Shown piece after piece: positions 4,428-46,037 of a DNA stretch of 64,000 bases. Numbering within the stretch: the stretch's first letter is position 1; the number at the start of each line of letters is the position of its first letter. Source of the DNA: an uncultured Candidatus Saccharibacteria bacterium (lineage in GTDB: Bacteria > Patescibacteriota > Minisyncoccia > Phycocordibacterales > WO2-35-19); assembly GCA_964548205.1 (NCBI GenBank), contig CAZJPJ010000004.1, positions 21,577 to 85,576 of the forward strand, read 5' to 3'. The translations under genes and the position numbers were made by a program. The notes beneath the pieces are model-generated. The model ran no database searches, was not told where the DNA came from, and was given only the letters and a program-made list of their open reading frames with translations.

Positions 4428-5475
4428 TCTTATACTTATCTAGATTCTCTAAAATAATACCCGTGCCCCTAACGACACAACTAAGTGGATTGTCTGCTAC
4501 ATAGACTGGTATTTTAGTTTCTTCGTGCAAAACATCTGCGATCCCTTTTATCAGCGCCCCACCACCAGCAAGATACAACCCTCTATGCATCACATCTGAC
4601 AAGATCTCTGGTGGAGTGACTTCAAGTACTTCCTTGGTTGCAATAACTAGCCGCTCGATTGAATTAGATATAGCATCTCTTACATCGACATCGGTCACAA
4701 CAACTTCCTTAGGCAAGCCACTTATTAGGTCCCTACCCCTTACTGCAATCTCTAGTGCTTCGTTACCAGGGATCAGTGCAGTTATGTTGGTCTTTATGAG
4801 TTCAGCCGTTTTTTCACCAATTACTATTTTAAACTCACTTCTTACATACGTAGCTATATCATTGTCCAGTTTGTCCCCTGCAATCTTTATGTTTTTAGAC
4901 CTTATAATACCCCCAGCAGATATGACAGCAATATCAGCAGTACCTCCTCCTATGTCTATAACCATATTGCCGATAGGTTCAAATATAGGCAGGTGCATAC
5001 CAACTGCTGCAGCTACAGGCTCTTCTATCAGATATACTTCACTTGCCCCTGCATTGCGAGTAGCATCTCGAACAGCCCGTGTCTCAACGTTTGTTATGCC
5101 AGATGGAACACCTACCACTACTCTAGGGCCCAAAATCCTACGAGATATGTTACCCACCTTATTCAACATATAGAAAATCATTTCTTCCGTAACCTCAAAA
5201 TCAGATATTACTCCATCGACAATAGGTCTTATAACTTCAATATGAGCCGGAGTTCTCCCAAGCATACTTCTGGCATCATTACCCACAGCTACAACCTGAT
5301 TAGTCTTGCGATTTATAGCGACAACAGAAGGCTCATTTATGACAATGCCTTTACCTTTTATGTAAACTAAAATATTGGCCGTACCGAGATCAATACCGAC
5401 ATCATTTTTCAGCAAGCTATGCCATTTTGATAATTTTTCAATAAATTTCATCGATTGATAGCATTTTAATTTCAC
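4393..5475 (-). CDS. mreB: rod shape-determining protein MreB (actin-like ATPase). The true start is probably downstream of the track start.
   Basis: VGIDLGTANILVY and DIGGGTADIAVIS phosphate-binding motifs. Confidence 0.9.
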   Translation of the reverse strand: MKLKCYQSMKFIEKLSKWHSLLKNDVGIDLGTANILVYIKGKGIVINEPSVVAINRKTNQVVAVGNDARSMLGRTPAHIEVIRPIVDGVISDFEVTEEMIFYMLNKVGNISRRILGPRVVVGVPSGITNVETRAVRDATRNAGASEVYLIEEPVAAAVGMHLPIFEPIGNMVIDIGGGTADIAVISAGGIIRSKNIKIAGDKLDNDIATYVRSEFKIVIGEKTAELIKTNITALIPGNEALEIAVRGRDLISGLPKEVVVTDVDVRDAISNSIERLVIATKEVLEVTPPEILSDVMHRGLYLAGGGALIKGIADVLHEETKIPVYVADNPLSCVVRGTGIILENLDKYKSVLLNEDNELT

Positions 5476-6673
5476 CTGTTTTTCTATTCTTTACTTCAAA
5501 CTTTCCAGATTCAATATTCTTTTCGCTCACTATGATTTGGTAAGGCATACCCAAGAGATCTGCATCTGCAAACTTTTCCCCAGCCCTTGCTTCTTTGTCA
5601 GCATAGAAACAATTGTTTTCTCCCAACTTCTTGTAAATCATTTCACTAACCTCCTTTACCTTACTGTTTTCTGAACTTATCTCTACAATATGATATCTAA
5701 ACGGAGCTACTTCTTCTGGCCAAGCCATACCTTTTTCATCTGAAAGCACTTCTACCAACACGCCCAAGAGTCTTGTTATACCAATACCGTAAGAACTTAG
5801 AAATACCGGCTTTCTTGCGCCATCTAGGTCTGTAAAGTAGAGCCCCAATTGCTCGCTTTTTTTTGTACCAAAATTAAATATGTTGCCGACTTCTGCTGCT
5901 TTTTTTTCTTCAAAATCAGCGCTAGTCTTTCCTAAAGACGCAAGAGTGTCAGTATTGAAAACCTCTTGATTTACTGCCTGTTTATTATCTTTAGATACAA
6001 AGATTACATCTTCGCCAGCATCAGTCAAAGTTTGAAATTCGTGACTAAACTTATCAGTAAAGGCGCCGCCAGAAGCACTTGTAACAAATGTGGACTCACC
6101 TATACCTATTCGCGCAAAAACTTTTCTGTATGAATCAATAACTCTGTTATAAAAATTATTATTCTCCTCTTCACTCTTTGCAAAGTAATACATATCTTTC
6201 ATCAAGAACTCTCTGCAACGCATGATGCCACTCTTTGCTCTAACTTCATTTCTAAGCTTATTCTGAAATTGGTGTACCGCGACAGGTAAATCGTTGTAGC
6301 TAGAGACATTGCCTTTCATTATCTCTGATATTGGTTCTTCATGTGACCAACCAAAACCCACCTCGCCACCAGCCTGCAAATTTGATTTAAACCAAACATC
6401 TACGTTTTTATCATCCCATCTATCTGTCTTTTGCCACAATTCTTTATTCTGCAACGTTGAGGCTAAAAGCTCTACAGAAGAAAGTAGCTGCATTTCTTCA
6501 TCGACTATTTTTTTTATCTTCTGCACCACCAAAAACCCCAGCGGCAATAAAGAATATACTCCGGCCATCTCTTTATGGATATAACCACCACGTATTAAGA
6601 GTATTGCGTTTTTAGATGACTCGTCACTCGGTGCCTCTCTTCTGGTCTTGGTAAAAAGCTCACTTTGTCTCAT
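5438..6673 (-). CDS. proS: prolyl-tRNA synthetase (short form without an editing insertion)
   Basis: N-terminus MRQSELFTKTRRE... matches class II ProRS; the C-terminal anticodon-binding region resembles ProRS. Confidence 0.85.
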   Translation of the reverse strand: MRQSELFTKTRREAPSDESSKNAILLIRGGYIHKEMAGVYSLLPLGFLVVQKIKKIVDEEMQLLSSVELLASTLQNKELWQKTDRWDDKNVDVWFKSNLQAGGEVGFGWSHEEPISEIMKGNVSSYNDLPVAVHQFQNKLRNEVRAKSGIMRCREFLMKDMYYFAKSEEENNNFYNRVIDSYRKVFARIGIGESTFVTSASGGAFTDKFSHEFQTLTDAGEDVIFVSKDNKQAVNQEVFNTDTLASLGKTSADFEEKKAAEVGNIFNFGTKKSEQLGLYFTDLDGARKPVFLSSYGIGITRLLGVLVEVLSDEKGMAWPEEVAPFRYHIVEISSENSKVKEVSEMIYKKLGENNCFYADKEARAGEKFADADLLGMPYQIIVSEKNIESGKFEVKNRKTGEIKMLSIDEIY

Positions 6674-36332: not shown

Positions 36333-37379
36333 GTGAAAAATAAAGGAGGTAAAACAAATAATATAGGAGAAAAGATAAAAGTGCTAGTGATACTTGGCCC
36401 CACAGCGAGTGGCAAGAGCGACTTGGCTGTATCTTTGGCGCGCAAATATGGCGGCGAAGTGGTAAGTGCAGATTCTAGACAGGTGTACAAAGGGTTAGAC
36501 ATTGGCACGGGGAAAATAACAAAAAGAGAAATGCAAGGTGTGCCCCACCATCTGCTTGATGTAGCTTCGCCAAAGCGACAATTTTCTGCTCACGACTTTG
36601 TAGAGCTTGCACAAAAAGCTATTGAAGACATACACGCGCGAGGTAAATTGCCCATCATCTGCGGTGGTACAGGGTTTTATATTAGTGCCCTACTTGGAGA
36701 GACAAAACTTTCTGACGTGCCGATGAATAAAAACCTCCGCAAAGAGCTGGAGAAAAAATCTGCACGAGAGTTGTTTGAGATTCTTCAAAATCTTGATGCA
36801 AAGAGAAGTAAAACAATCGATAAGTATAATCCGCACAGGCTGATAAGAGCAATAGAAATAGCCAAAGCTTCTGCAAAACATAAGCAAGCATCAAGTCCTA
36901 AAAAACAAGTTCCAAACAAATATGAGGTATGCAAAATAGGAGTTGCACCAATGAAAAAAATATCCCACCCCCCTACCCCCTCCCTTACCTTAAGGAAGGG
37001 GGCGAAGAGAGAGAGTTATATCATTGATCAAACAGAATTAAAAAGAAAAATAAATGAGCGTATAGATCGATGGTTCAAACTTGGACTAATAAATGAGGTG
37101 AAAAATCTTCACAAGAAAAGGATTTCGTGGAAACGAATGTCAGATATAGGCTTAGAATACAGGCTAGTTGCACAATACTTGCAAAAGAAACTAACAAAAG
37201 ATCAACTTACAGAAAGAATGCGGCTTGAAACTTGGCACTACGCCAAACGCCAGATGACGTGGTTCAAGAGACCTGTCCACCACGCTTCGCGAAGCGATGC
37301 ATGCGGAGATAGACAAATACATTGGTTCAAACCTGACCAAGTTACAAAGATCCAAAAGCTAGTTTCAAAATTTATTTAG
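36333..37379 (+). CDS. miaA: tRNA dimethylallyltransferase
   Basis: VLVILGPTASGKSDLAVSLA...VVSADSRQVYKGLDIGTGKIT. Contains an in-frame GC-rich insertion (ISHPPTPSLTLRKGAKRES). Confidence 0.85.
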   Translation: MKNKGGKTNNIGEKIKVLVILGPTASGKSDLAVSLARKYGGEVVSADSRQVYKGLDIGTGKITKREMQGVPHHLLDVASPKRQFSAHDFVELAQKAIEDIHARGKLPIICGGTGFYISALLGETKLSDVPMNKNLRKELEKKSARELFEILQNLDAKRSKTIDKYNPHRLIRAIEIAKASAKHKQASSPKKQVPNKYEVCKIGVAPMKKISHPPTPSLTLRKGAKRESYIIDQTELKRKINERIDRWFKLGLINEVKNLHKKRISWKRMSDIGLEYRLVAQYLQKKLTKDQLTERMRLETWHYAKRQMTWFKRPVHHASRSDACGDRQIHWFKPDQVTKIQKLVSKFI

Positions 37380-37451
37380 CGGGTCCAGCAGGACTCGAAC
37401 CTGCAACCTCGGTTTTGGAGACCGATGTTTTACCATTGAAACTATAGACCC
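37380..37451 (-). tRNA. tRNA-Trp (anticodon CCA)
   Basis: GGGTCTATAGTTTCAATGGTAAAACATCGGTCTCCAAAACCGAGGTTGCAGGTTCGAGTCCTGCTGGACCCG. Confidence 0.85.
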
Positions 37452-37717
37452 TAAAAATCTAGCCTGTAAATATCCTTGTGATGGCCGATGTATAGGAATG
37501 TTACAACATCTCCGGAAAAATGAAAAATGATACGGTAGGCTCTATCTACCCTAAAACTCCAAATATTCAACTGCTTTGGAGAAAGTTTCTCAGTATTAAG
37601 AGAAGGATAAAACATATTAGCCCGAAACACAGCCTCCTGTTTCTGAGCTTTTCGTTGAATTACAGGTGTTAATTGTTCATACATACGAATAAATTTTCGT
37701 GTATAAACAATCTGCAT
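37451..37717 (-). CDS. RelE/ParE-family toxin (type II TA)
   Basis: 88 aa; ...LRVDRAYRIIFHFSGDVVTFLYIGHHKDIYR resembles the C-terminal motif of the RelE/ParE fold. Confidence 0.6.
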   Translation of the reverse strand: MQIVYTRKFIRMYEQLTPVIQRKAQKQEAVFRANMFYPSLNTEKLSPKQLNIWSFRVDRAYRIIFHFSGDVVTFLYIGHHKDIYRLDF

Positions 37718-37723
37718 TTTGTT

Positions 37724-37918
37724 TTAGATGTACTTTAGACTTTTAGCTTTGACTACCCTACCCTCCTTCATATCAGCAAGTGACTCTTTCATATCTTTGA
37801 CAAATTTGGGTTCAAACATATCCAAAGAACCTGCAATTCTCTCAAGAGCGTTCAGATCAACGGAAATATTGTATTTCTTTGACTTATGATTTTTTGTTGT
37901 AATTATCATCAAATTCAT
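37724..37918 (-). CDS. cognate antitoxin (small, upstream of the toxin)
   Basis: 64 aa; position and size fit a RelB/Phd-type antitoxin; a 6-nt gap separates it from the toxin. Confidence 0.45.
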   Translation of the reverse strand: MNLMIITTKNHKSKKYNISVDLNALERIAGSLDMFEPKFVKDMKESLADMKEGRVVKAKSLKYI

Positions 37919-37937: not shown

Positions 37938-38093
37938 TTACTTCTTACTTTCCTTGAAAACGACCCTCTTTCGGAGCTTTTTGGAATATTTTTTGAGCTC
38001 GATTTTACGCTCTACTTTTTTCTTGTTTTTGCGTGTCCAATACACCTCCCCAGTAGTTTTGTGCACTAGTTTTATCAGTTGATCTTGAGACAT
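37938..38093 (-). CDS. rpmG: 50S ribosomal protein bL33
   Basis: Hand translation gives MSQDQLIKLVHKTTGEVYWTRKNKKKVERKIELKKYSKKLRKRVVFKESKK, which resembles the E. coli L33 pattern IKLV..TG..Y.T.KNKR...KLELKK.....R.V.YKE.K. At 51 aa it is below the track cutoff. Confidence 0.8.
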   Translation of the reverse strand: MSQDQLIKLVHKTTGEVYWTRKNKKKVERKIELKKYSKKLRKRVVFKESKK

Positions 38094-38109
38094 AGGCTTC
38101 AATATAACA

Positions 38110-38949
38110 CTATTTTAATAGCTGTGCAAACCCTCCCATAAGCTCTTCGGTAACTCTCCCAATAGCCCCACCCCCCACTACAGAATCATCTATTTTGACT
38201 ATCGGCACTATATCTTTGAATGAAGAAGTTATAAAGACCTCATCCGCCTCATAGAGCTCCTTGGTATAAACCCTTCTTTCTTCTACCTTATATTTATCCT
38301 TGGCAAGATCGAGTACGACCTTGCGAGTGATGCCATAAAGCACCTCGTCCGATGGAGTGATGATAGTATTATCCTTGACCATAAAAATGTTACTAGTTGC
38401 ACACTCATACACTTCCCCATCTTTGGTATAGAGCACTTCTACTGCACCCTCTTGTTTTCTATGGTCCTGCAAACTCACACCTCTGATATAGTTTGTAGTT
38501 TTATATTCTGGAAATTCTCTCAAAAAATCTACGGTTATAAGCGCAGCCCCATTTTCATAATAATTTTTGGGTAAAGATACAAACTTCTCGACAATGATAT
38601 AAAAAGTAGGATTTGCAAACTCATACTCTATACCTGCAATGGTCCGCCCGCCGGTTAGGATCAACCTTACATTGCCGCGATTACAAACATCACCCACACA
38701 ACCATTTTTGATTGCAAGTTCTTCTATCTTTTTTTCTACTACTTCTGGAGCATACGGAATGTTGAGATTGAGAAACCTTGCCCCACTCACAAACCTATTC
38801 CAGTGATCTTCAAAGTGAAAAACTTTGCCATTTATGACCGCAAGCCCGTCATATATGCCATACCCTCTCAAAAGCCCTATGTCTTCAATTCCGATCTTAG
38901 CCTCTTTAAGCGGCATTATCTCTCCGTTTAGAAAACAATATTCCATCAT
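38110..38949 (-). CDS. dat: class IV PLP aminotransferase, probably D-amino-acid aminotransferase
   Basis: Fold-type IV pattern (GLLRGYGIYDG... ; ...EVFITSS). Overlaps the murD stop by 4 nt. Confidence 0.65.
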   Translation of the reverse strand: MMEYCFLNGEIMPLKEAKIGIEDIGLLRGYGIYDGLAVINGKVFHFEDHWNRFVSGARFLNLNIPYAPEVVEKKIEELAIKNGCVGDVCNRGNVRLILTGGRTIAGIEYEFANPTFYIIVEKFVSLPKNYYENGAALITVDFLREFPEYKTTNYIRGVSLQDHRKQEGAVEVLYTKDGEVYECATSNIFMVKDNTIITPSDEVLYGITRKVVLDLAKDKYKVEERRVYTKELYEADEVFITSSFKDIVPIVKIDDSVVGGGAIGRVTEELMGGFAQLLK

Positions 38950-40301
38950 TTTTGTTTTATACTATCTACTAATAAATTAAACTTCTCTCCCCGATCAAAT
39001 TCATTTTTAAATTTTTCAAAACTCTTGGCCCCCGGTGAAAAGATGATAGCGGTTTTTTTGTTATCAGTTGATTTTGTAAGATCCAAAGCTCTTTTAAAGC
39101 ATTCGTCCAACGAACCATACTCTTGATAACTCTGATAAGAGAGAGCGTTCTTGAGTTTTTCTGTAGCACTACCAGATATAAGTATAAGATTTTCTCTATC
39201 TATCCTTTTATTTATGGCTTCTGCTAAAGGTTTTAGTTCGAGCTCCTTATCGGTACCACCAGCTATGAGTACAGTCCTTTCGCTACCAAACCTTTCTATA
39301 GCAGCAACAGTTGCTTCAGGAGAAGTAGCAGCAGAATCGTTGTATATCTTCAAATTTGCATCAGAATATACAAGCTCCTGTCTAAATTTTATCTGGGGCA
39401 AAGTTTCTACAGCTTTCCTTATATCTGTGTTTATAACTCCAGCAAGAAGTGCGGCTTCAGTAGCAAATAACAGATTGGTGGTATTGTGCAGCCCCCACTT
39501 TTCTTCAAATCTTTTTAGAAAAGCATCGTCATAAACATCAGGATGATTTATATACAAAACTTGTCTGCCATGCCTCAAATCTGAAAAGTATTTTGACCAT
39601 TGTTGATTGTAATCAAGAATAAGAACGTGATCACTAGATTGGCCCAAGAAAATATTTGCTTTTATTCTTGCATAATTTTCGATATTTTTGTGCCGGTTCA
39701 GATGATCAGGATAAATATTGGTGATAATAGCAACAATAGGATCAAAGTTATATTTGTCCACCAGCTCCAAATGATACGAAGGCACTTCTAGGACTACTAT
39801 GCTTTCTTCGTTTATCGAATCTAATGCCTGAAGAAACGGATTTTCTGGATTGTTACCAAGTAAAAAAGTATTTGGAAACTTACTCTTTATAAGATGGTAG
39901 GTCCATGCTGATGTTGTAGTCTTACCTCTCGTCCCTGTAATTGCAACTACTTTCTTACTTTTGCAATATTTATAAAAGAGAGTCAGCTCATTTTCTATCA
40001 ACTTACCTTTTGCTCTTGCCAGCTCTACGTACTTATTATCACTCGGTACATCAGGGTTAATGACAATTATATCGTTATTCAAAAAGTCCAACTCATCATG
40101 CCTACCAAGTTTATAATGTATACGATCTTCAAATTCTTTGAGTTTTTCAATAGAAGAGTTCAGAGCTTCAGCATCCTTCAAGTCTGTGATAGTCAGAAAT
40201 ACTCCTTGATTCAAAAGCCATCTTGCAGTAGCCACTCCGCCACCCAAGATGCCCAAACCCATAAGTAAAACTCTTTTTTCTCTTAGAATCATTTTAGACA
40301 C
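38946..40301 (-). CDS. murD: UDP-N-acetylmuramoylalanine--D-glutamate ligase
   Basis: N-terminal Rossmann region GLGILGGGVA; VVAITGTRGKTTTSAWTYHLI P-loop; C-terminal GGTDKELE. Confidence 0.85.
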   Translation of the reverse strand: MSKMILREKRVLLMGLGILGGGVATARWLLNQGVFLTITDLKDAEALNSSIEKLKEFEDRIHYKLGRHDELDFLNNDIIVINPDVPSDNKYVELARAKGKLIENELTLFYKYCKSKKVVAITGTRGKTTTSAWTYHLIKSKFPNTFLLGNNPENPFLQALDSINEESIVVLEVPSYHLELVDKYNFDPIVAIITNIYPDHLNRHKNIENYARIKANIFLGQSSDHVLILDYNQQWSKYFSDLRHGRQVLYINHPDVYDDAFLKRFEEKWGLHNTTNLLFATEAALLAGVINTDIRKAVETLPQIKFRQELVYSDANLKIYNDSAATSPEATVAAIERFGSERTVLIAGGTDKELELKPLAEAINKRIDRENLILISGSATEKLKNALSYQSYQEYGSLDECFKRALDLTKSTDNKKTAIIFSPGAKSFEKFKNEFDRGEKFNLLVDSIKQK

Positions 40302-41826
40302 TTGTTATTTTCTCGATACTTGCACCGATACTATTGAGCCTATCGACCACATCTTCATAACCACGAGTGATGGAGTAGACATTTCTCAACACAGACGTCC
40401 CACTTGCGGCAAGCATTGCTATAAGGATAATCATCGCAGGTCGCAAGGCTGGAGGACATACCACCTGAGCCCCCTTTAATAGGGTTGGACCGTTTACAAA
40501 AGCTCGGTGGGGATCGACTAGAGTAATGCTGGCTCCCAACTTATTTAGCTCAGTAAAGTGTATAGCCCTATCTTCCCACATCCAGTCGTGTATAAGAGTG
40601 CGACCTTGTGCTTGTGTGGCAATAGGTACAAAAAACGGTAGGTTGTCAGAGTTTAATCCCGGATATGGCAAAGCGTGCAATTTATCATGCGGAGCACTGA
40701 GCTTGGATGGCAAGACAGTTATATCTACGAGCTTAGTGTGACCATTCTTTGCAAGATATGATTTTGATATCAAAAATTTTTGACCCATCTTTTCCAATTT
40801 CAAGACCTCAAGCTGTAGGAAATCTATCGGGCATCTTTTTACTACAAGCCTTGAATTTGTGGTTATAGCAGCAGAAAGAAACATCATAGACTCTATCGGG
40901 TCTTCACTATTTTCATACTCCACATTCTGATTGATCTCCTTTAGCCCCGTCACCTGAAGAGTGGTAGTGCCTATGCCTTCTATCTTCACACCCAACTTCT
41001 GCAGGAAAAAGCAAACCTCCTGCACTTGATAATTCGGGGGTGCAAAACTTATCTTGGTAGTACCCTCAATCAAAGAAGCCAGCATTATGGCATTTTCGGC
41101 GGCAGTATCGCTCGATTCGTAAAGTACTATCTCGTTAGCCTTCAGCTTTTTTGTAGTTATTTCATATTTACCATCCAGACTTTTTATATTCACCCCCAAA
41201 TCTTCGAAGGCAAATTTATGAGCGGCAATAGTTCTCTCTCCCATCTTGCAACCACCTGTATGAAGCATAGGAAAATTCCCAAGATTGTGCACAAAAGCAG
41301 GTATGAGCATCAGACTAGAACGGACACTAGCTACTGATTTGTGCATCAGTCCAGTTTTCTCAAATGTTTTTGGAGGCACGATCTCCAGCGTATGGAGATC
41401 GAGCCAGCGAGTCTTTACTCCCAAATTGCTAAATATCTCTAACATTCTGTTTACCTCTTCGATGCGCGGCATACCTCTAAGAGTAGTAACCCCTTTGTTT
41501 AAAAGCGCAGCACAAAGAAGCCCCATAGCACCATTTTTAGATGGATTTGTGGTAATAGAACCTTTGAGTTTCTTACCACCATGCACCTTAAAATCTACGG
41601 TATCAGAAAGTGAGACGATCTTGTGATCTAGAGCATCGCTGATACGCATCAACTCCTGAGCAGTAAGATTCTGACCACCACGCTCTATCCTAGCAATAGC
41701 ACTTTGGGAAGTGTTCAATCGTTTGGCTAGATCTCCTTGGGTAAGAAGCCTCTTTTCCCTCAACTTTTTGATAAAAGCTCCTATTGCCTTCTGACTCTGA
41801 TCGGTAATGTTTTGCACATTTTTCAT
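40294..41826 (-). CDS. murA: fusion of an N-terminal XRE-family HTH domain to UDP-N-acetylglucosamine 1-carboxyvinyltransferase (MurA)
   Basis: Residues 15-75: LTQGDLAKRLNTSQSAIARIERGGQNLTAQELMRISDAL, a Cro/C1 HTH. From about residue 85 the MurA features begin: KNGAMGLLCAALL...; the Cys/Asp loop ...HTGGCKMGERTIAA; C-terminal ...RGYEDVVDRLNSIGASIEKI. Confidence 0.8.
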   Translation of the reverse strand: MKNVQNITDQSQKAIGAFIKKLREKRLLTQGDLAKRLNTSQSAIARIERGGQNLTAQELMRISDALDHKIVSLSDTVDFKVHGGKKLKGSITTNPSKNGAMGLLCAALLNKGVTTLRGMPRIEEVNRMLEIFSNLGVKTRWLDLHTLEIVPPKTFEKTGLMHKSVASVRSSLMLIPAFVHNLGNFPMLHTGGCKMGERTIAAHKFAFEDLGVNIKSLDGKYEITTKKLKANEIVLYESSDTAAENAIMLASLIEGTTKISFAPPNYQVQEVCFFLQKLGVKIEGIGTTTLQVTGLKEINQNVEYENSEDPIESMMFLSAAITTNSRLVVKRCPIDFLQLEVLKLEKMGQKFLISKSYLAKNGHTKLVDITVLPSKLSAPHDKLHALPYPGLNSDNLPFFVPIATQAQGRTLIHDWMWEDRAIHFTELNKLGASITLVDPHRAFVNGPTLLKGAQVVCPPALRPAMIILIAMLAASGTSVLRNVYSITRGYEDVVDRLNSIGASIEKITSV

Positions 41827-41855
41827 GGTATAAAATATATCATATGTGATATATT

Positions 41856-42851
41856 GTGTGTATGACTATTGTGGAAAAAGATGCTTTTATACCAAACTCT
41901 ATGAGCTTAGAATCGCGAGCCAGACTGCTTGTCCGAGCCAAAAGCCGGGCGGACATAGTAGAAGCTTGTGAGCTTTCTGATCGCGAGAAGTTACCTCTCT
42001 TGGCTATAGGAGGCGGCACCAATGTCATACTTGGTCCTAAGATCGAAGCTCTTGTGCTACTTATGGAAAATATGGGGGTGGAGATAGGCCCCATATCTAC
42101 AGTGCAAGCAGGGGAAGATTGGGACAGCTTCGTAGCCAAAGCAGTCGGAGTAGGACTCTCTGGTATAGAAAGTCTTAGCGCTATACCAGGAAGCACTGGA
42201 GCGGCACCTGTCCAAAATATCGGGGCTTATGGTTCGGAGATAAAAGATATTCTCATATCGGTAGAGGCTTATGATAGAGAGAAAACAGAGTTTGTAGAAA
42301 TAAACAACAAAGATTGCGGTTTTGGATATAGGGAAAGTGTTTTCAAAAGAGAGCCGAATAAATTTGTCATTGCATCGATAAAGTTAAAACTAAACACTAA
42401 CAAACCAAAAGTGCCGGAATACAAAGATGCTATAAAATATTTCGCAGACAGAAACATCACCTCCCCTACTCTGCAAGAAATACGAGAAGCTATAATAGAG
42501 ATACGGAGCAACAAACTACCTGACCCAAAAGAAATACCGAACTGCGGTTCTTTTTTCAAAAACCCGATTTTAGATCTTCCATCACTTGATAAACTGAAGA
42601 CCGTTTTGCCTGCAATACCTACATTCCCTTTCGGAGACTCATACAAAGTACCAGCAGGACACCTCATAGAACAAGCGGGTTTTAAGGGTAAAGAGATAGG
42701 TAAAATAAAAGTTTATGAACACAACGCACTAGTGCTTACAAATCCAAACAATGGATCCTACCAAGATATTTTAAGCGCGAAGGAGACCATAGAAAAAGAT
42801 GTTTTGGAAAAATTCGGCATTAAATTAGAACCAGAAGTAAATTTTGTATAA
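41856..42851 (+). CDS. murB: UDP-N-acetylenolpyruvoylglucosamine reductase
   Basis: FAD-binding LLAIGGGTNVILGPK...GIESLSAIPGSTGAAPVQNIGAYG. Confidence 0.85.
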   Translation: MCMTIVEKDAFIPNSMSLESRARLLVRAKSRADIVEACELSDREKLPLLAIGGGTNVILGPKIEALVLLMENMGVEIGPISTVQAGEDWDSFVAKAVGVGLSGIESLSAIPGSTGAAPVQNIGAYGSEIKDILISVEAYDREKTEFVEINNKDCGFGYRESVFKREPNKFVIASIKLKLNTNKPKVPEYKDAIKYFADRNITSPTLQEIREAIIEIRSNKLPDPKEIPNCGSFFKNPILDLPSLDKLKTVLPAIPTFPFGDSYKVPAGHLIEQAGFKGKEIGKIKVYEHNALVLTNPNNGSYQDILSAKETIEKDVLEKFGIKLEPEVNFV

Positions 42852-44220
42852 TTTATACATGAATATTTTTGATAAAAAAAAATATCATTTTATAGGCATA
42901 GGGGGGATCGGCATATCGGCTATTGCCAGAATGCTTGTCTTGCAAGGCAAAAAAGTAAGCGGGAGTGACAGTGCAAAATCAGAGATAACGGATGATCTAG
43001 AAAAGATCGGGGTAAAAATATACATAGGGCAAAGAGCGGAAAACATTGCACCTGATACGGAAGTGGTTATCTATACTATCGCAATACCAGATACCAACCC
43101 AGAGATGCGAGAAGCTATGAAGAAAGCGGGTGGAGCAAAATCAGCAACGGAGCGAACATCCGCAGTGCAACGAGGACAAGAGAGCGAAATAGCTACTTTC
43201 GCTTCACCCAATTTATTATGTCTTTCTTACCCCGAAGCACTTGGTGAGCTTTCTAGGCAAAAATACACCATAGCCATATCAGGTACCCACGGCAAGACCA
43301 CAACCACTGCCATGATCGCCCACATTATGGAAAAGGCAGGACTCGACCCAACTGTCATCATAGGTTCAAAGATGCTCAGTGGTGACGGAGATAGTGCACA
43401 AACTAACTTTCATGCAGGTAAGAGCAAGTACTTGGTAGCCGAAGCTTGCGAATACCGCCGTTCATTCCTCAATCTTTCCCCTACAATACTTGTGATAACA
43501 AACATCGAACCTGACCACCTTGATTACTACAAAGATTTCGATGATATAAAGAGCGCCTTTGAAGAACTAAAAGCAAAAGTACCAGAAAACGGGTTTGTAG
43601 TAGATGAAAATGAATACAGCAAGATCACACAAACATTCCCTCTCCCCATGGCCGGTGAGCACAATATGAAAAATGCTCGAGCTGCCATATGTGCTGTCAG
43701 TAAAATAGGAGTAAGTGTCGAAAAAGCTATCAAATATCTTCAGGACTTTAGAGGCACTTGGCGCAGACTCGAATATAAGGGTAGTATCTCAAATAAAGAC
43801 GGAGAGCAAAACAGTATGATATTTTATGACGACTACGCCCACCACCCTACTGCCATAGAAGCTACGCTCAGAGCTCTTAGAGAAAAGTACCCAGATCACA
43901 CACTCATAGCAGTATTTGAACCTCATCAACAGAAACGGACTAAAGATTTTTTTGATCAGTTTGTCACTTCCCTCTCACTTGCCGACCTTGCCTTCATCGC
44001 CCCAATATACATGGCCCGCGAAGAAAAGGACCCAAGCATCTCAAACACTATTCTCGCAGATACTATAAACAAAAATATCCCTGCCAAACCAATCGCTAAT
44101 GTAGATGAACTTAAAGCATACTTGGATCGTATCGATAATTCCAAGCCTATCTGCGTGGCTATGATGGGAGCTGGTGATATTTATAAGTACACCCAAGCTC
44201 TTTTATCAAAAACCTCATAA
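42844..44220 (+). CDS. murC: UDP-N-acetylmuramate--L-alanine ligase
   Basis: GIGGIGISAIARML; IAISGTHGKTTTTAMIAHIM; DHLDYY. Confidence 0.85.
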   Translation: MYNLYMNIFDKKKYHFIGIGGIGISAIARMLVLQGKKVSGSDSAKSEITDDLEKIGVKIYIGQRAENIAPDTEVVIYTIAIPDTNPEMREAMKKAGGAKSATERTSAVQRGQESEIATFASPNLLCLSYPEALGELSRQKYTIAISGTHGKTTTTAMIAHIMEKAGLDPTVIIGSKMLSGDGDSAQTNFHAGKSKYLVAEACEYRRSFLNLSPTILVITNIEPDHLDYYKDFDDIKSAFEELKAKVPENGFVVDENEYSKITQTFPLPMAGEHNMKNARAAICAVSKIGVSVEKAIKYLQDFRGTWRRLEYKGSISNKDGEQNSMIFYDDYAHHPTAIEATLRALREKYPDHTLIAVFEPHQQKRTKDFFDQFVTSLSLADLAFIAPIYMAREEKDPSISNTILADTINKNIPAKPIANVDELKAYLDRIDNSKPICVAMMGAGDIYKYTQALLSKTS

Positions 44221-45462: not shown

Positions 45463-45511
45463 CGTCGGTGGTAGAGCTTGCCCCGCCACGGCGGGGTGAA
45501 GTCAATTACAA
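45463..45511 (+). repeat. tRNA-Tyr 5' fragment (positions 1-27) with a 25-nt GC hairpin inserted in the D-loop, immediately upstream of the GIY-YIG gene
   Basis: gcgtcggtggtagag [cttgccccgccacggcggggtgaag] tcaattacaa compared with the intact tRNA's gcgtcggtggtagagtggtcaattacaa. Confidence 0.65.
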
Positions 45512-45512
45512 T

Positions 45513-45755
45513 ATGTGGTATGTATATATTCTCAAAAGCTTGAAGGATGAAAAATACTATATAGGTTGTACAGATAATTTAGAGAGAAGAATTGATCAAC
45601 ACAACAGAGGAGAAAATTCATCGACTAGATTCCGGAGACCTTTTGAGTTAATCTATACAGAAACATACGCGAATAGCAGTATTGCTTATTCGAGAGAAAA
45701 GAAAATAAAAAGATACAAAGGTGGAAATACCTTTAGGAAATTGATAAGTAAATAA
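45513..45755 (+). CDS. GIY-YIG nuclease family protein (small, UPF0213/YhbQ-like)
   Basis: MWYVYILKSLKDEKYYIGCTDNLERRIDQHNRG, the GIY-YIG motif. The ATG at 45513 is preferred; the track ORF starts from an upstream GTG that lies inside the tRNA fragment. Confidence 0.7.
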   Translation: MWYVYILKSLKDEKYYIGCTDNLERRIDQHNRGENSSTRFRRPFELIYTETYANSSIAYSREKKIKRYKGGNTFRKLISK

Positions 45756-45756
45756 T

Positions 45757-45840
45757 GCGTCGGTGGTAGAGTGGTCAATTACAACAGACTGTAAATCTGT
45801 CGGCCTTAGGCCTACGCAGGTTCGAATCCTGCCCGGCGCA
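45757..45840 (+). tRNA. tRNA-Tyr (anticodon GTA), class II long variable arm
   Basis: GCGTCGGTGGTAGAGTGGTCAATTACAACAGACTGTAAATCTGTCGGCCTTAGGCCTACGCAGGTTCGAATCCTGCCCGGCGCA. Confidence 0.85.
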
Positions 45841-46037
45841 CAGCGCAAAACAAAACAAAAACAGGATAAATGCCTGTTTTTGTTTTCGTGCCTATGCACG
45901 AGGGAGGATTCGAAAGCCGGAGGGCACGGAGCGAAGCGAAGTCCGAACTTAGCAAAGTTCGGGCCCGAGGTGGGGTCGCGGAAAATTATTTTTGACGAAA
46001 AATAATTTATCTGTGACCGAATCCTGCCCGGCGCACA
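45823..46037 (+). mobile_element. att-like structure: a 20-nt direct repeat of the tRNA-Tyr 3' end (cgaatcctgcccggcgcaca) bounding a roughly 175 bp hairpin-rich segment; remnant of an element integrated at the tRNA 3' end
   Basis: Identical 20-mers at 45823..45842 and 46018..46037; internal palindromes (acaaaaacagg...cctgtttttgt and aaaattattttt-gacg-aaaaataatttt). Confidence 0.55.

Follow-up and report, generated by a model that had tools for sequence, protein, structure and literature searches.

Trigger enzymes with an attached DNA-binding domain, a concept set out by Commichau and Stulke, include the biotin ligase/repressor BirA, NadR, PutA and the archaeal RbkR (PMC5397151). A related architecture is found in the BzdR subfamily, whose members possess an N-terminal XRE-type helix-turn-helix (HTH), a linker and a shikimate-kinase-like effector domain; BzdR has been put forward as a case in which an enzyme recruited a DNA-binding domain (PMC3602430). 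Here, we analyze HTH-MurA, a protein in which an XRE/Cro-C1 HTH is joined to MurA and whose gene lies in a window of 64,000 nucleotides (the window being the whole stretch of DNA that was analyzed). MurA carries out the first committed step of peptidoglycan synthesis. Its known control is post-translational, through UDP-MurNAc feedback and, in Firmicutes, proteolysis, and, to our knowledge, little is understood of how the cytoplasmic steps of peptidoglycan synthesis are controlled at the level of transcription. Patescibacteria have very few transcription factors and are hard to culture. Tight binding of UDP-MurNAc by canonical MurA is named in the titles of PDB entries 3swd, 3su9 and 8d84. We found no description of HTH-MurA or of its palindrome in the literature; one GenBank record labels HTH-MurA 'with a repressor domain'.

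An earlier, sequence-only reading of the window had claimed a continuous fusion of an HTH to full-length MurA, encoded at the head of murD-dat and overlapping murD by 8 nt. The fusion is borne out by a single open reading frame and by the Pfam and NCBIfam matches, and is confirmed as one HTH-MurA protein of 510 aa, to which the database protein P0001 is a 100% match. The extent of the overlap is correct, and murD and then dat follow on the same strand (Table 1). Upstream and divergent lie murB and murC, which are probably co-transcribed, since murC overlaps the murB end. In 30 of 76 related loci the gene upstream of HTH-murA, and divergent from it, is murB. A ParE-like toxin gene is present at 37451..37717, 2.6 kb from HTH-murA, where it is paired with its own small partner. 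No cognate toxin gene adjoins HTH-murA, whose neighbours are murD and murB. As no toxin partner adjoins it and its C-terminal partner is an essential biosynthetic enzyme, HTH-MurA is not an antitoxin.

Table 1. Features of the HTH-murA locus, in window coordinates
Feature	Position	Strand	Remarks
Class IV aminotransferase, dat-like (D-amino-acid supply)	38110..38949	-	Pfam Aminotran_4; overlaps murD end
murD	38946..40301	-	8-nt overlap with murA end
HTH-MurA gene	40294..41826	-	Uninterrupted 510-aa ORF; ATG start; stop codon within coordinates
MurA catalytic domain, aa 79-507	40306..41592	-	NCBIfam NF006873
Linker, aa 68-78 'HKIVSLSDTVD'	41593..41625	-	pLDDT < 50 at aa 71-73
XRE/Cro-C1 HTH domain, aa 19-67	41626..41772	-	Pfam HTH_3, 47.1 bits
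murA promoter	41834..41862	-	-35 TACACA 41862-41857; 17-nt spacer; TG 41842-41841; -10 TATATT 41839-41834
Predicted operator, 18-bp palindrome TATATCATATGTGATATA	41836..41853	.	Comparative conservation
Mirror-image extended -10 of murB-murC	41847..41855	+	TG 41847-41848; TATATT 41850-41855; read from sequence
murB	41856..42851	+	Likely start ATG 41862; Pfam FAD_binding_4 and MurB_C; divergent from murA
murC	42844..44220	+	Pfam Mur_ligase, Mur_ligase_M and Mur_ligase_C; overlaps murB end

The N-terminal domain belongs to the DNA-binding HTH class. Its HTH_3 score exceeds the Pfam gathering cutoff of 23 (E 2.4e-12), HTH_31 is matched with 37.9 bits (cutoff 27), and the Pfam families matched, HTH_3, HTH_31 and HTH_19, are DNA-binding families; the NCBIfam model PRK08154 also matches the HTH, and the Pfam search gave no match of the window protein to a RodZ-type model. 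Profile matches among solved structures are to HipB, HigA, controller (C) proteins, SinR and the 434 repressor, and the nearest solved relatives are dimeric DNA-binding repressors. An AF2 model depicts the region as a helical bundle (helices at aa 2-25, 30-36, 41-48 and 56-65; pLDDT 81-90), in which a turn separates helix 2 from helix 3; the latter is the recognition helix, which reads 'TSQSAIARIE' and is followed by 'GGQN'. Residues R23, Q30, T39, Q41, S42, A45, R46, E48, G50, Q52 and N53 are invariant in 46 homologues, and Q30, Q41, S42 and R46 we take, by mapping onto the 434 repressor, to be base-contact positions. In the model the HTH is folded as a module of its own, attached by a linker of low confidence that looks like a flexible tether; a conserved 'HKIVSL' strand follows helix 4. 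Among the structure alignment and Foldseek matches, no solved structure covering aa 1-78 was found.

The remainder of the protein is a complete MurA. The EPSP_synthase family (PF00275) aligns at aa 82-497 over profile positions 2-417 of 417 (171.5 bits), and the MurA subfamily model NF006873 scores 317.4 bits against a cutoff of 297; the equivalog model TIGR01072 gives 307.7 bits, below its cutoff of 392.7. The fold is modelled with a pLDDT of 87, and its Foldseek TM-scores, taken relative to some 40 solved MurA chains, are 0.86-0.90. Invariant in the 46 homologues are Lys97, Cys193, Arg198, Asp394 and Arg488, which we take to be the equivalents of Lys22, Cys115, Arg120, Asp305 and Arg397 of E. 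coli MurA (E. coli numbering). In an alignment to PDB 5ujs they fall on its corresponding residues. With its catalytic residues intact, the window protein is predicted to be an active UDP-GlcNAc enolpyruvyl transferase. An internal start that would give free MurA was considered and rejected: there is no ATG near aa 76-80 ('TVDFK'), and the only GTG (V81) is not conserved, homologues having I or V at that position.

The fusion is widely kept. When the 120 best protein clusters at 90% identity were taken as the homologue set, at least 115 of them were found to be about 505 aa long with both Pfam domains, and the HTH is in frame in 78 of 80 GTDB species-representative loci (Patescibacteria/Paceibacteria, 60-75% identity), so that related genomes do carry the same fusion. 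Mean pairwise identity is 62% for the HTH region, 56% for the linker and 70% for MurA. The fusion is also present in the Actinomycetota Nocardioides, Kribbella, Nonomuraea and Arsenicicoccus, where the homologues are located outside mur clusters; a canonical murA is likely also present in these large genomes, and a spare MurA is unlikely in the small genomes of the window's relatives. Hundreds of independent assemblies share the fusion, which excludes a stop or frameshift separating a small regulator from murA, or any other assembly artefact. Three actinobacterial genomes seemed to have a conserved -1 frameshift, but this was downgraded, since 54 of 64 relatives are contiguous at the same C-run. 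No split intermediate, with HTH and MurA unfused, was found among the related loci, and an HTH-only search of 1.84 billion cluster representatives gave no evidence that fusion of this HTH to enzymes is a general habit; nearly all of the single-HTH matches inspected were HTH-MurA fragments, alongside multi-HTH repeat proteins. In the P0132 and P0194 lineages the MurA catalytic Cys loop is gone and the recognition helix is intact, which indicates that the HTH is selected independently of catalysis, and in the Zambryskibacteria lineage L021 (P0087, P0091, P0103) the HTH has been lost from MurA.

The intergenic region 41827..41855, where the sequence-only reading had suggested that a palindromic operator might lie, contains a predicted site. 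A perfect palindrome, TATATCAYATRTGATATA, whose inverted arms reach 41834-41842 and 41847-41855, is located in the 35 bp between murA and murB, where it overlaps each of the two extended -10 boxes. Its 18-bp core is the sole match in the window when up to 3 mismatches are allowed (0.14 expected by chance), and its score with a position weight matrix (PWM) is 35.8 bits, the next best in the window being 8.3. The murA promoter has 9 of 12 consensus matches and the TG extension. Because the murA ATG lies only 7 nt downstream of the -10 TATATT, its mRNA would be leaderless or nearly so; the murB ATG is located 6 nt downstream of the mirror -10, and both mRNAs appear, from these positions, to be leaderless or near-leaderless.

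In 76 of 78 loci HTH-murA is preceded by the same palindrome, and in 25 loci the gap to the murA ATG is exactly 8 nt. A PWM scan of about 600 kb of related loci returned 96 matches at or above 14 bits, versus 0.5 in shuffled sequence; about 71 of these are at murA, 10 at murC and 2-3 at murD/dat, and almost no non-mur genes carry the palindrome. In other genomes, where murC or murD/dat forms a separate unit, each is preceded by its own copy, and a weaker copy lies between murA and dat in loci L012 and L015. The actinobacterial HTH-MurA genes, from genomes of 68-71% GC, are preceded, at 12-13 nt from the ATG, by palindromes resembling TATCTCATATGTGAGATA, and none of these loci has a further PWM match. 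A general promoter motif of the genome was ruled out by the single site in 64 kb and by the restriction of sites in related loci to mur genes. This distribution, before murA and at murC and murD/dat, supports the earlier suggestion that the fused HTH may autoregulate the Mur operon.

The palindrome is also associated with HTH genes that have no connection to MurA. About 125 exact palindromes were found in a metagenome sample; for about 50 of these an HTH of the HTH-MurA class is encoded no more than 520 bp away, the palindrome invariably preceding the HTH gene. These genes include Gp49-toxin/XRE-antitoxin operons and solo HigA-like genes, and the recognition helix of the encoded proteins is 'T(K/S)QSN(I/V)ARIE.G.QN'. 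At these loci the spacer and the -10 of a TTGACA-17-TATAAT promoter are taken up by the palindrome, the classic position for the operator of an autorepressor. The remaining 75 or so palindromes have no such HTH nearby, which counts against the association, although they may be chance AT-rich matches. Most likely, the HTH and its predicted operator were captured from a HigA/HipB-like antitoxin module, an origin that fits the earlier proposal that the gene of an upstream regulator became permanently fused. An HTH/predicted-operator pair common with toxin-antitoxin modules points to a route, the capture of an antitoxin promoter-operator-HTH cassette, by which a housekeeping enzyme could gain regulation.

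We propose, with a probability of roughly 0.7, that HTH-MurA is bifunctional, being both an enzyme and, in the manner of a trigger enzyme, a dimeric autorepressor that acts at the palindrome on a small Mur regulon. Autoregulation is the simplest reading because the HTH gene lies directly downstream of its cognate palindrome. The XRE-type HTH would be flexibly tethered at the N-terminus of the MurA enzyme, and two HTH domains, in a dimer or in two molecules side by side, would read the half-sites of TATATCA-YATR-TGATATA. MurA is usually a monomer, which counts against the dimer model. In this genome the palindrome lies over the TG-extended -10 boxes of both back-to-back promoters, and its occupancy should therefore act in both directions: RNA polymerase would be blocked, and murA-murD-dat and murB-murC would be repressed rather than activated. 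The abundance of MurA would in this way exert negative feedback on the cytoplasmic Mur pathway.

The palindrome might, alternatively, be no more than a bidirectional TG-extended -10 serving two leaderless transcripts, its symmetry unread by any protein and the HTH otherwise employed or idle. Each half together with two flanking bases gives TRTGATATAWT, which is close to the extended -10 consensus; in the window, as in the 30 loci noted above, the mirror half serves the divergent murB; and the HTH-less L021 still has the palindrome before both murA and murD. Part of the conservation of the palindrome does reflect promoter constraint, since its right half is a near-perfect TRTGnTATAAT extended -10. 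Operator and promoter were distinguished by comparing the last T of the -10 hexamer (position 20 on the mirror side) with the presence of a divergent gene. On the murA side 45 of 61 loci have this T; on the mirror side 22 of 33 loci with a divergent gene have it but only 7 of 28 without one, which is background level (Fisher p = 0.0019 and 2e-5), whereas the mirror half-site itself is about 97% conserved in those 28 loci, whose upstream gene is co-directional. On this asymmetry, bidirectional -10 boxes alone were rejected as the explanation of the palindrome. In the toxin-antitoxin loci, moreover, the left half lies in the -35/-10 spacer, unconstrained by promoters; the motif is absent from all other promoters of the window; and the palindrome co-occurs with the HTH subtype in unrelated contexts and in GC-rich Actinomycetota. 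We therefore consider a promoter-only palindrome improbable. A separately encoded XRE protein, such as a HigA-like antitoxin, might also be the main occupant, with the HTH of MurA a minor competitor or a means of targeting MurA to that protein or to the nucleoid. Elsewhere, identical palindromes do adjoin genes for antitoxins and solo HTH proteins that share this recognition helix, and L021 retains its sites without a fused HTH. Yet no stand-alone HTH of this class occurs in the window, within about 4 kb of murA in the 80 genome loci, or within 4 kb of the L021 sites, and the site accompanies the fused gene in two phyla, so we give a separate occupant little credence.

Two further explanations assign the domains other roles. 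The HTH could be a protein-protein interaction or localization module that tethers MurA to a cell-wall synthesis complex; the XRE-type HTH of RodZ, which binds MreB, provides a precedent, and the post-translational nature of known MurA regulation is in keeping with it. One article (PMC9804626) discusses RodZ together with MurA. This explanation gives the cognate palindrome no role, and the Pfam matches to DNA-binding families rather than to RodZ, together with the invariance of the putative base-contact positions, make it very improbable in our judgement. The MurA domain could instead be mainly the ligand sensor of a transcription factor, as in BzdR, with another enzyme supplying MurA activity. 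Such a role would suit the P0132 and P0194 relatives without the Cys loop and the actinobacterial homologues, which lie outside mur clusters in genomes large enough for a likely canonical murA. For the window protein it is highly unlikely: the five catalytic residues are invariant in it and its relatives, the gene heads murD-dat opposite murB-murC, the cutoff of the NCBIfam MurA subfamily is passed, and a second MurA would be unexpected in such small genomes.

If autorepression by HTH-MurA is correct, it would place the first committed step of peptidoglycan synthesis under direct and minimal feedback, through an 18-bp operator on the murA, murB, murC and murD promoters, and in HTH-MurA cell-wall synthesis would have its first assigned regulator of the trigger-enzyme type. 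By analogy with trigger enzymes, one can speculate that the ligand state of MurA (UDP-GlcNAc, PEP or tightly bound UDP-MurNAc) modulates DNA binding. A fuller version, possible and on balance doubtful, is a metabolite-gated trigger enzyme in which the open/closed or UDP-MurNAc-locked state of MurA would set the pairing of the HTH domains on the palindrome, so that flux through this first step might directly set transcription of the whole cytoplasmic Mur pathway, in this genome from one 22-bp bidirectional leaderless promoter-operator, on a cassette captured from a toxin-antitoxin system. The occurrence of the fusion in culturable Actinomycetota makes the prediction directly testable.

HTH-MurA shares features with each of the systems to which it can be compared. 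In its fold (TM-score about 0.89), its Cys loop and its Lys, Arg and Asp residues, it resembles canonical MurA of E. coli and Enterobacter cloacae (PDB 1uae, 1naw, 3swd), which differs in having no DNA-binding domain and in being regulated by feedback binding and proteolysis rather than by self-encoded transcriptional control. HigA/HipB-type antitoxins (PDB 6af3, 4z5h, 2wiu; TIGR03070) are the best sequence relatives of its HTH, and the metagenomic Gp49-toxin/HTH-antitoxin operons have an identical palindrome over the promoter and a near-identical recognition helix. These antitoxins autorepress through a palindromic operator, as is predicted for HTH-MurA; HTH-MurA differs in having no adjacent toxin partner and in its C-terminal part, an essential biosynthetic enzyme. 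Like BzdR, it runs from an XRE HTH through a linker to an enzyme-derived C-terminal domain and is a predicted repressor of a catabolic or biosynthetic operon, but the enzyme-like domain of BzdR is non-catalytic and only binds inducer, whereas HTH-MurA keeps all of the MurA catalytic residues; a likeness in lost catalysis is limited to the distant relatives P0132 and P0194. Most of the trigger enzymes named above use a winged HTH or a ribbon-helix-helix rather than an XRE/Cro-C1 domain and serve vitamin, cofactor or amino-acid metabolism rather than peptidoglycan precursor synthesis, and control of DNA binding by ligand or catalytic state, which operates in BirA, NadR, PutA and RbkR, is speculative for HTH-MurA. 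It nevertheless resembles trigger enzymes in combining intact catalytic residues and a DNA-binding domain in one polypeptide, and in having a predicted operator that overlaps promoters in its own pathway, that of its own gene among them.

HTH-MurA is encoded by a single uninterrupted open reading frame that joins an XRE-type helix-turn-helix (HTH) to a MurA domain, and no ATG is present where a free-standing MurA would start. The protein does not reach the stricter NCBIfam equivalog threshold (TIGR01072), and in alignment its MurA part retains the equivalents of Lys22, Cys115, Arg120, Asp305 and Arg397. About 40 solved MurA structures superpose on this part with TM-scores of 0.86-0.90 relative to the target; none of the solved structures matched covers aa 1-78, where an AlphaFold model (pLDDT 87) places a four-helix N-terminal module and then, at aa 71-73, a linker modelled with low confidence. 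On the criteria that sequence and structure comparison can address, HTH-MurA appears to be a MurA.

The sequence-only reading had claimed a continuous fusion and called for a check against related genomes, and the comparison bears the claim out. At least 115 of the 120 closest protein clusters (90%-identity clusters, 63-79% identical to HTH-MurA) are ~505 aa long and contain both domains. When one genome per GTDB species was scanned, a relative was found in 367 genomes, and the HTH is in frame in 78 of the 80 best loci (60-75% identity; labelled Zambryski-, Jorgensen-, Yanofsky-, Nomura-, Uhrbacteria or Paceibacterota). Judged by these homologues, the fusion is real. The HTH region is nearly as conserved as MurA (mean pairwise identity 62% vs 70%), with R23, Q30, T39, Q41, S42, A45, R46, E48, G50, Q52 and N53 invariant among homologues; Q30, Q41, S42 and R46 we take to be base-contacting positions by mapping to 434 repressor. 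The architecture itself is already present in databases: it is common in Actinomycetota (Nocardioides, Kribbella, Aeromicrobium, Nonomuraea, Arsenicicoccus), and one GenBank record is titled 'UDP-N-acetylglucosamine 1-carboxyvinyltransferase with a repressor domain'; we found no paper describing it. In three actinobacterial assemblies (two contigs of ~3.8 Mb, one of ~10 Mb) the reading frame of the homologue breaks at one shared codon position (between DYSP and SEDPIEAM), where a C-run is 1 nt short; a -1 shift restores the full protein. Of the 64 relatives whose sequence extends to this position, 54 have an unbroken frame and 10 a shifted one; homopolymer sequencing error or recurrent pseudogenization is more likely here than programmed recoding.

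Coordinates of features in the window and in related genome or metagenome loci (L handles)
Feature	Location	Details
HTH-MurA gene	window 40294..41826 (-)	510 aa; murA ATG 41826
HTH_3 (XRE/Cro-C1 helix-turn-helix)	aa 19-67	Pfam, 47.1 bits vs cutoff 23
EPSP-synthase/MurA fold	aa 82-497	Pfam
MurA subfamily model NF006873	aa 79-507	NCBIfam, 317 bits vs cutoff 297
Perfect inverted repeat	window 41834-41855	AATATATCA-N4-TGATATATT
18-bp core	window 41836..41853	TATATCAYATRTGATATA
murB start, likely	window 41862	ATG
murB start, mechanical ORF call	window 41856	GTG
tRNA-Trp	window 37379-37451	
ParE/HigB-like toxin and upstream partner	window 37451-37918 (-)	88 aa, PF24732; partner 64 aa
rpmG (L33)	window 37938-38102	
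GIY-YIG nuclease-domain ORF, stand-alone	window 45468-45755 (+)	95 aa
tRNA-Tyr	window 45757-45841	
Palindromes before murA and murD	L021 3966-3983 and 5322-5339	MHWS01000002, Zambryskibacteria
Palindrome variant	L017 5540-5557	TATCTCATATGTGATATG, 22.5 bits
Peptidase_C39_2-like gene	L017 5569-6153	
Small conserved ORF, ~83 aa	L005 513-767; L011 2806-3057; L034 2592-2879	...AGSLV.I......WRKA..WP..V.....HVVLKD.T
Lengthened palindromes	L061, L075, L054, L045, L052, L074, L051, L040, L047	just upstream of HTH-murA; 4-10 extra complementary bases
Gp49 (PF05973) HigB-like toxin + XRE antitoxin operons	L107 5232-5917; L168, L170, L171, L190, L193, L137, L153, L150	identical 18-bp palindrome on promoter
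Actinobacterial palindromes		CATCTCATATGTGAGATA Nonomuraea; TATCTCATATCTGAGATA CP025581; TATCTCATATGTGAGTTA Arsenicicoccus
C-run split of HTH-MurA homologue	L202 ~4900-4960; L203 ~4900-4960; L081 ~5900-5960	

HTH-murA overlaps murD by 8 nt, and murD is followed by a class IV aminotransferase gene (dat), both as previously read from the sequence. The murB and murC genes are divergent from HTH-murA, leaving a gap of only 35 bp between the murA ATG and the likely murB ATG. The palindromic operator candidate that was to be sought in this gap is present as a perfect inverted repeat, whose core is the sole match in the 64-kb window with up to three mismatches allowed. The palindrome lies immediately upstream of HTH-murA in 76 of the 78 related loci with upstream sequence (80 aligned), as an exact match in 52 of the 76, and 25 loci have exactly 8 nt between palindrome and ATG. 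When the palindromes upstream of HTH-murA in related loci were turned into a weight matrix, it gave 96 matches of at least 14 bits in ~600 kb, vs 0.5 in shuffled sequence. These lie at murA (~71), 3-9 nt before murC (10) and before murD/dat (2-3), a few more being ambiguous in placement; thus, split Mur transcription units each keep their own palindrome. In the window, one copy between murA-murD-dat and murB-murC serves both sides.

Several local observations accompany this arrangement. The GTG called as the murB start is only 2 nt past the palindrome, and the ATG, 6 nt past the mirror -10, better matches the spacing in homologues. In L017, the gene that directly follows HTH-murA is Peptidase_C39_2-like and has a palindrome variant 11 nt upstream; it could be an extra regulon member in that genome. 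In several Zambryskibacteria-like loci, a small conserved ORF is divergent from murC and has the murC palindrome in common with it. Where palindromes are lengthened, the extra bases are not conserved between loci and a T-run often follows if the upstream gene points the same way; the hairpin may then also act on that gene as a weak, AT-rich terminator. In the window, a ParE/HigB-like toxin pair sits directly downstream of dat, between rpmG and tRNA-Trp, with no palindrome copy at the pair, and a GIY-YIG ORF abuts tRNA-Tyr.

The exact palindrome occurs in at least 120 loci in public metagenomes. Membership of the HTH class was decided with an HMM of the MurA HTH. Among the matches listed, ~50 of ~125 sites have such an HTH within 520 bp; the palindrome is always upstream of that HTH gene, and the rest of these loci contained no further member of the class. 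About 27 of these HTH-linked sites belong to HTH-MurA genes, including some on contigs of 54-56% GC. The remainder belong to operons of a Gp49/HigB-like toxin then an XRE antitoxin, or to solo HigA-like genes, whose HTHs have 29-50% identity with the MurA HTH and the same pattern in the recognition helix, T(S/K/T)QS(A/N)(I/V)ARIE.G.QN. The ~75 listed palindromes with no HTH nearby may be chance AT-rich matches. In the toxin-antitoxin operons, which have a TTGACA-17-TATAAT promoter, the palindrome occupies its spacer and its -10, where an antitoxin's autorepressor operator classically lies. In the Gp49 operons, 17 nt separate the TTGACA box from the -10, the toxin ATG lies inside the palindrome (ATGATATA encodes M-I-Y...), and the antitoxin recognition helix is nearly identical to that of HTH-MurA. 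Actinobacterial genomes with a GC content of 68-71% have a palindrome 12-13 nt before the ATG of the HTH-MurA gene, each the only matrix match in its own 9-11 kb locus. This co-occurrence in metagenomes and actinobacteria indicates that HTH subtype and palindrome travel together across gene contexts and phyla. No other HTH of this class is encoded nearby in the window or the 80 genome loci. Among solved structures, the HTH is most closely related to dimeric repressors: HipB, HigA, restriction-modification controller proteins, SinR and 434 repressor.

The palindromic element is certainly a promoter. Each half, taken with the two bases next to it, has the sequence TRTGATATAWT, which is close to the consensus of a TG-extended -10. 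For murA, a promoter scan returned TACACA-17-TATATT with TG present upstream of the -10, and the ATG lies 7 nt beyond this hexamer; on the murB side, 6 nt separate the end of the mirror box from the ATG. Because of this spacing, the murA and murB mRNAs are probably leaderless or nearly so. Promoter and operator roles were compared at position 20, the last T of the -10 hexamer. It is T on the murA side in 45 of 61 loci, and on the mirror side in 22 of 33 loci with a divergent gene but in only 7 of 28 (background) with a co-directional upstream gene (Fisher p = 0.0019 and 2e-5). Despite this loss, the mirror half-site is ~97% conserved in those 28 loci, with 10 of 252 positions mismatched; the symmetry thus persists even without a promoter to serve, as would be expected for a site bound by a two-fold symmetric protein. 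A pure-operator reading is weakened by a Zambryskibacteria sub-lineage (L021) in which the palindrome persists 9 nt ahead of murA, with a weaker copy in front of murD and no stand-alone HTH of this class within 4 kb; this retention fits a promoter role of the element or a recent deletion. MurA in this sub-lineage (proteins P0087, P0091, P0103) starts MIKADSVDFK, the HTH having been lost by a clean deletion of about aa 2-73.

We propose that two HTH domains of HTH-MurA bind the palindrome and occlude the overlapping -10 boxes. HTH-MurA would thereby repress the operon that encodes it and also murB-murC, the divergent operon; the predicted outcome is that MurA abundance feeds back negatively on the cytoplasmic Mur pathway. 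What the comparisons show directly is the architecture, how far it is conserved, the specificity of the site and its association with this HTH subtype; DNA binding, the sign of regulation, dimerization and leaderless starts are inferred. MurA is normally monomeric, which counts against a dimer-based mechanism. More speculatively, the ligand state of the MurA domain might tune DNA binding, as in BirA, NadR, PutA and RbkR (PMC5397151); tight locking of UDP-MurNAc by MurA is documented in PDB entries.

In two distant HTH-MurA-like proteins, P0132 (515 aa) and P0194 (517 aa), the recognition helix is intact (TSQSAIARIESGxQNLT) and the catalytic Cys loop (GGCKMGERT) is degenerate, which shows that the HTH is selected independently of catalysis; they may be pure regulators with a MurA-like sensor domain. 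Their loss of the Cys loop has a parallel in BzdR, which evolved from a fusion of a shikimate kinase with an XRE HTH (PMC3602430). An antitoxin role for HTH-MurA was rejected, as the defining adjacent toxin is absent. The conserved predicted operator, the Mur regulon and the operator common to toxin-antitoxin modules are apparently undescribed. In its proposed function HTH-MurA is like trigger enzymes and BzdR-type regulators, and by descent its HTH belongs with the HigA/HipB-type antitoxins.
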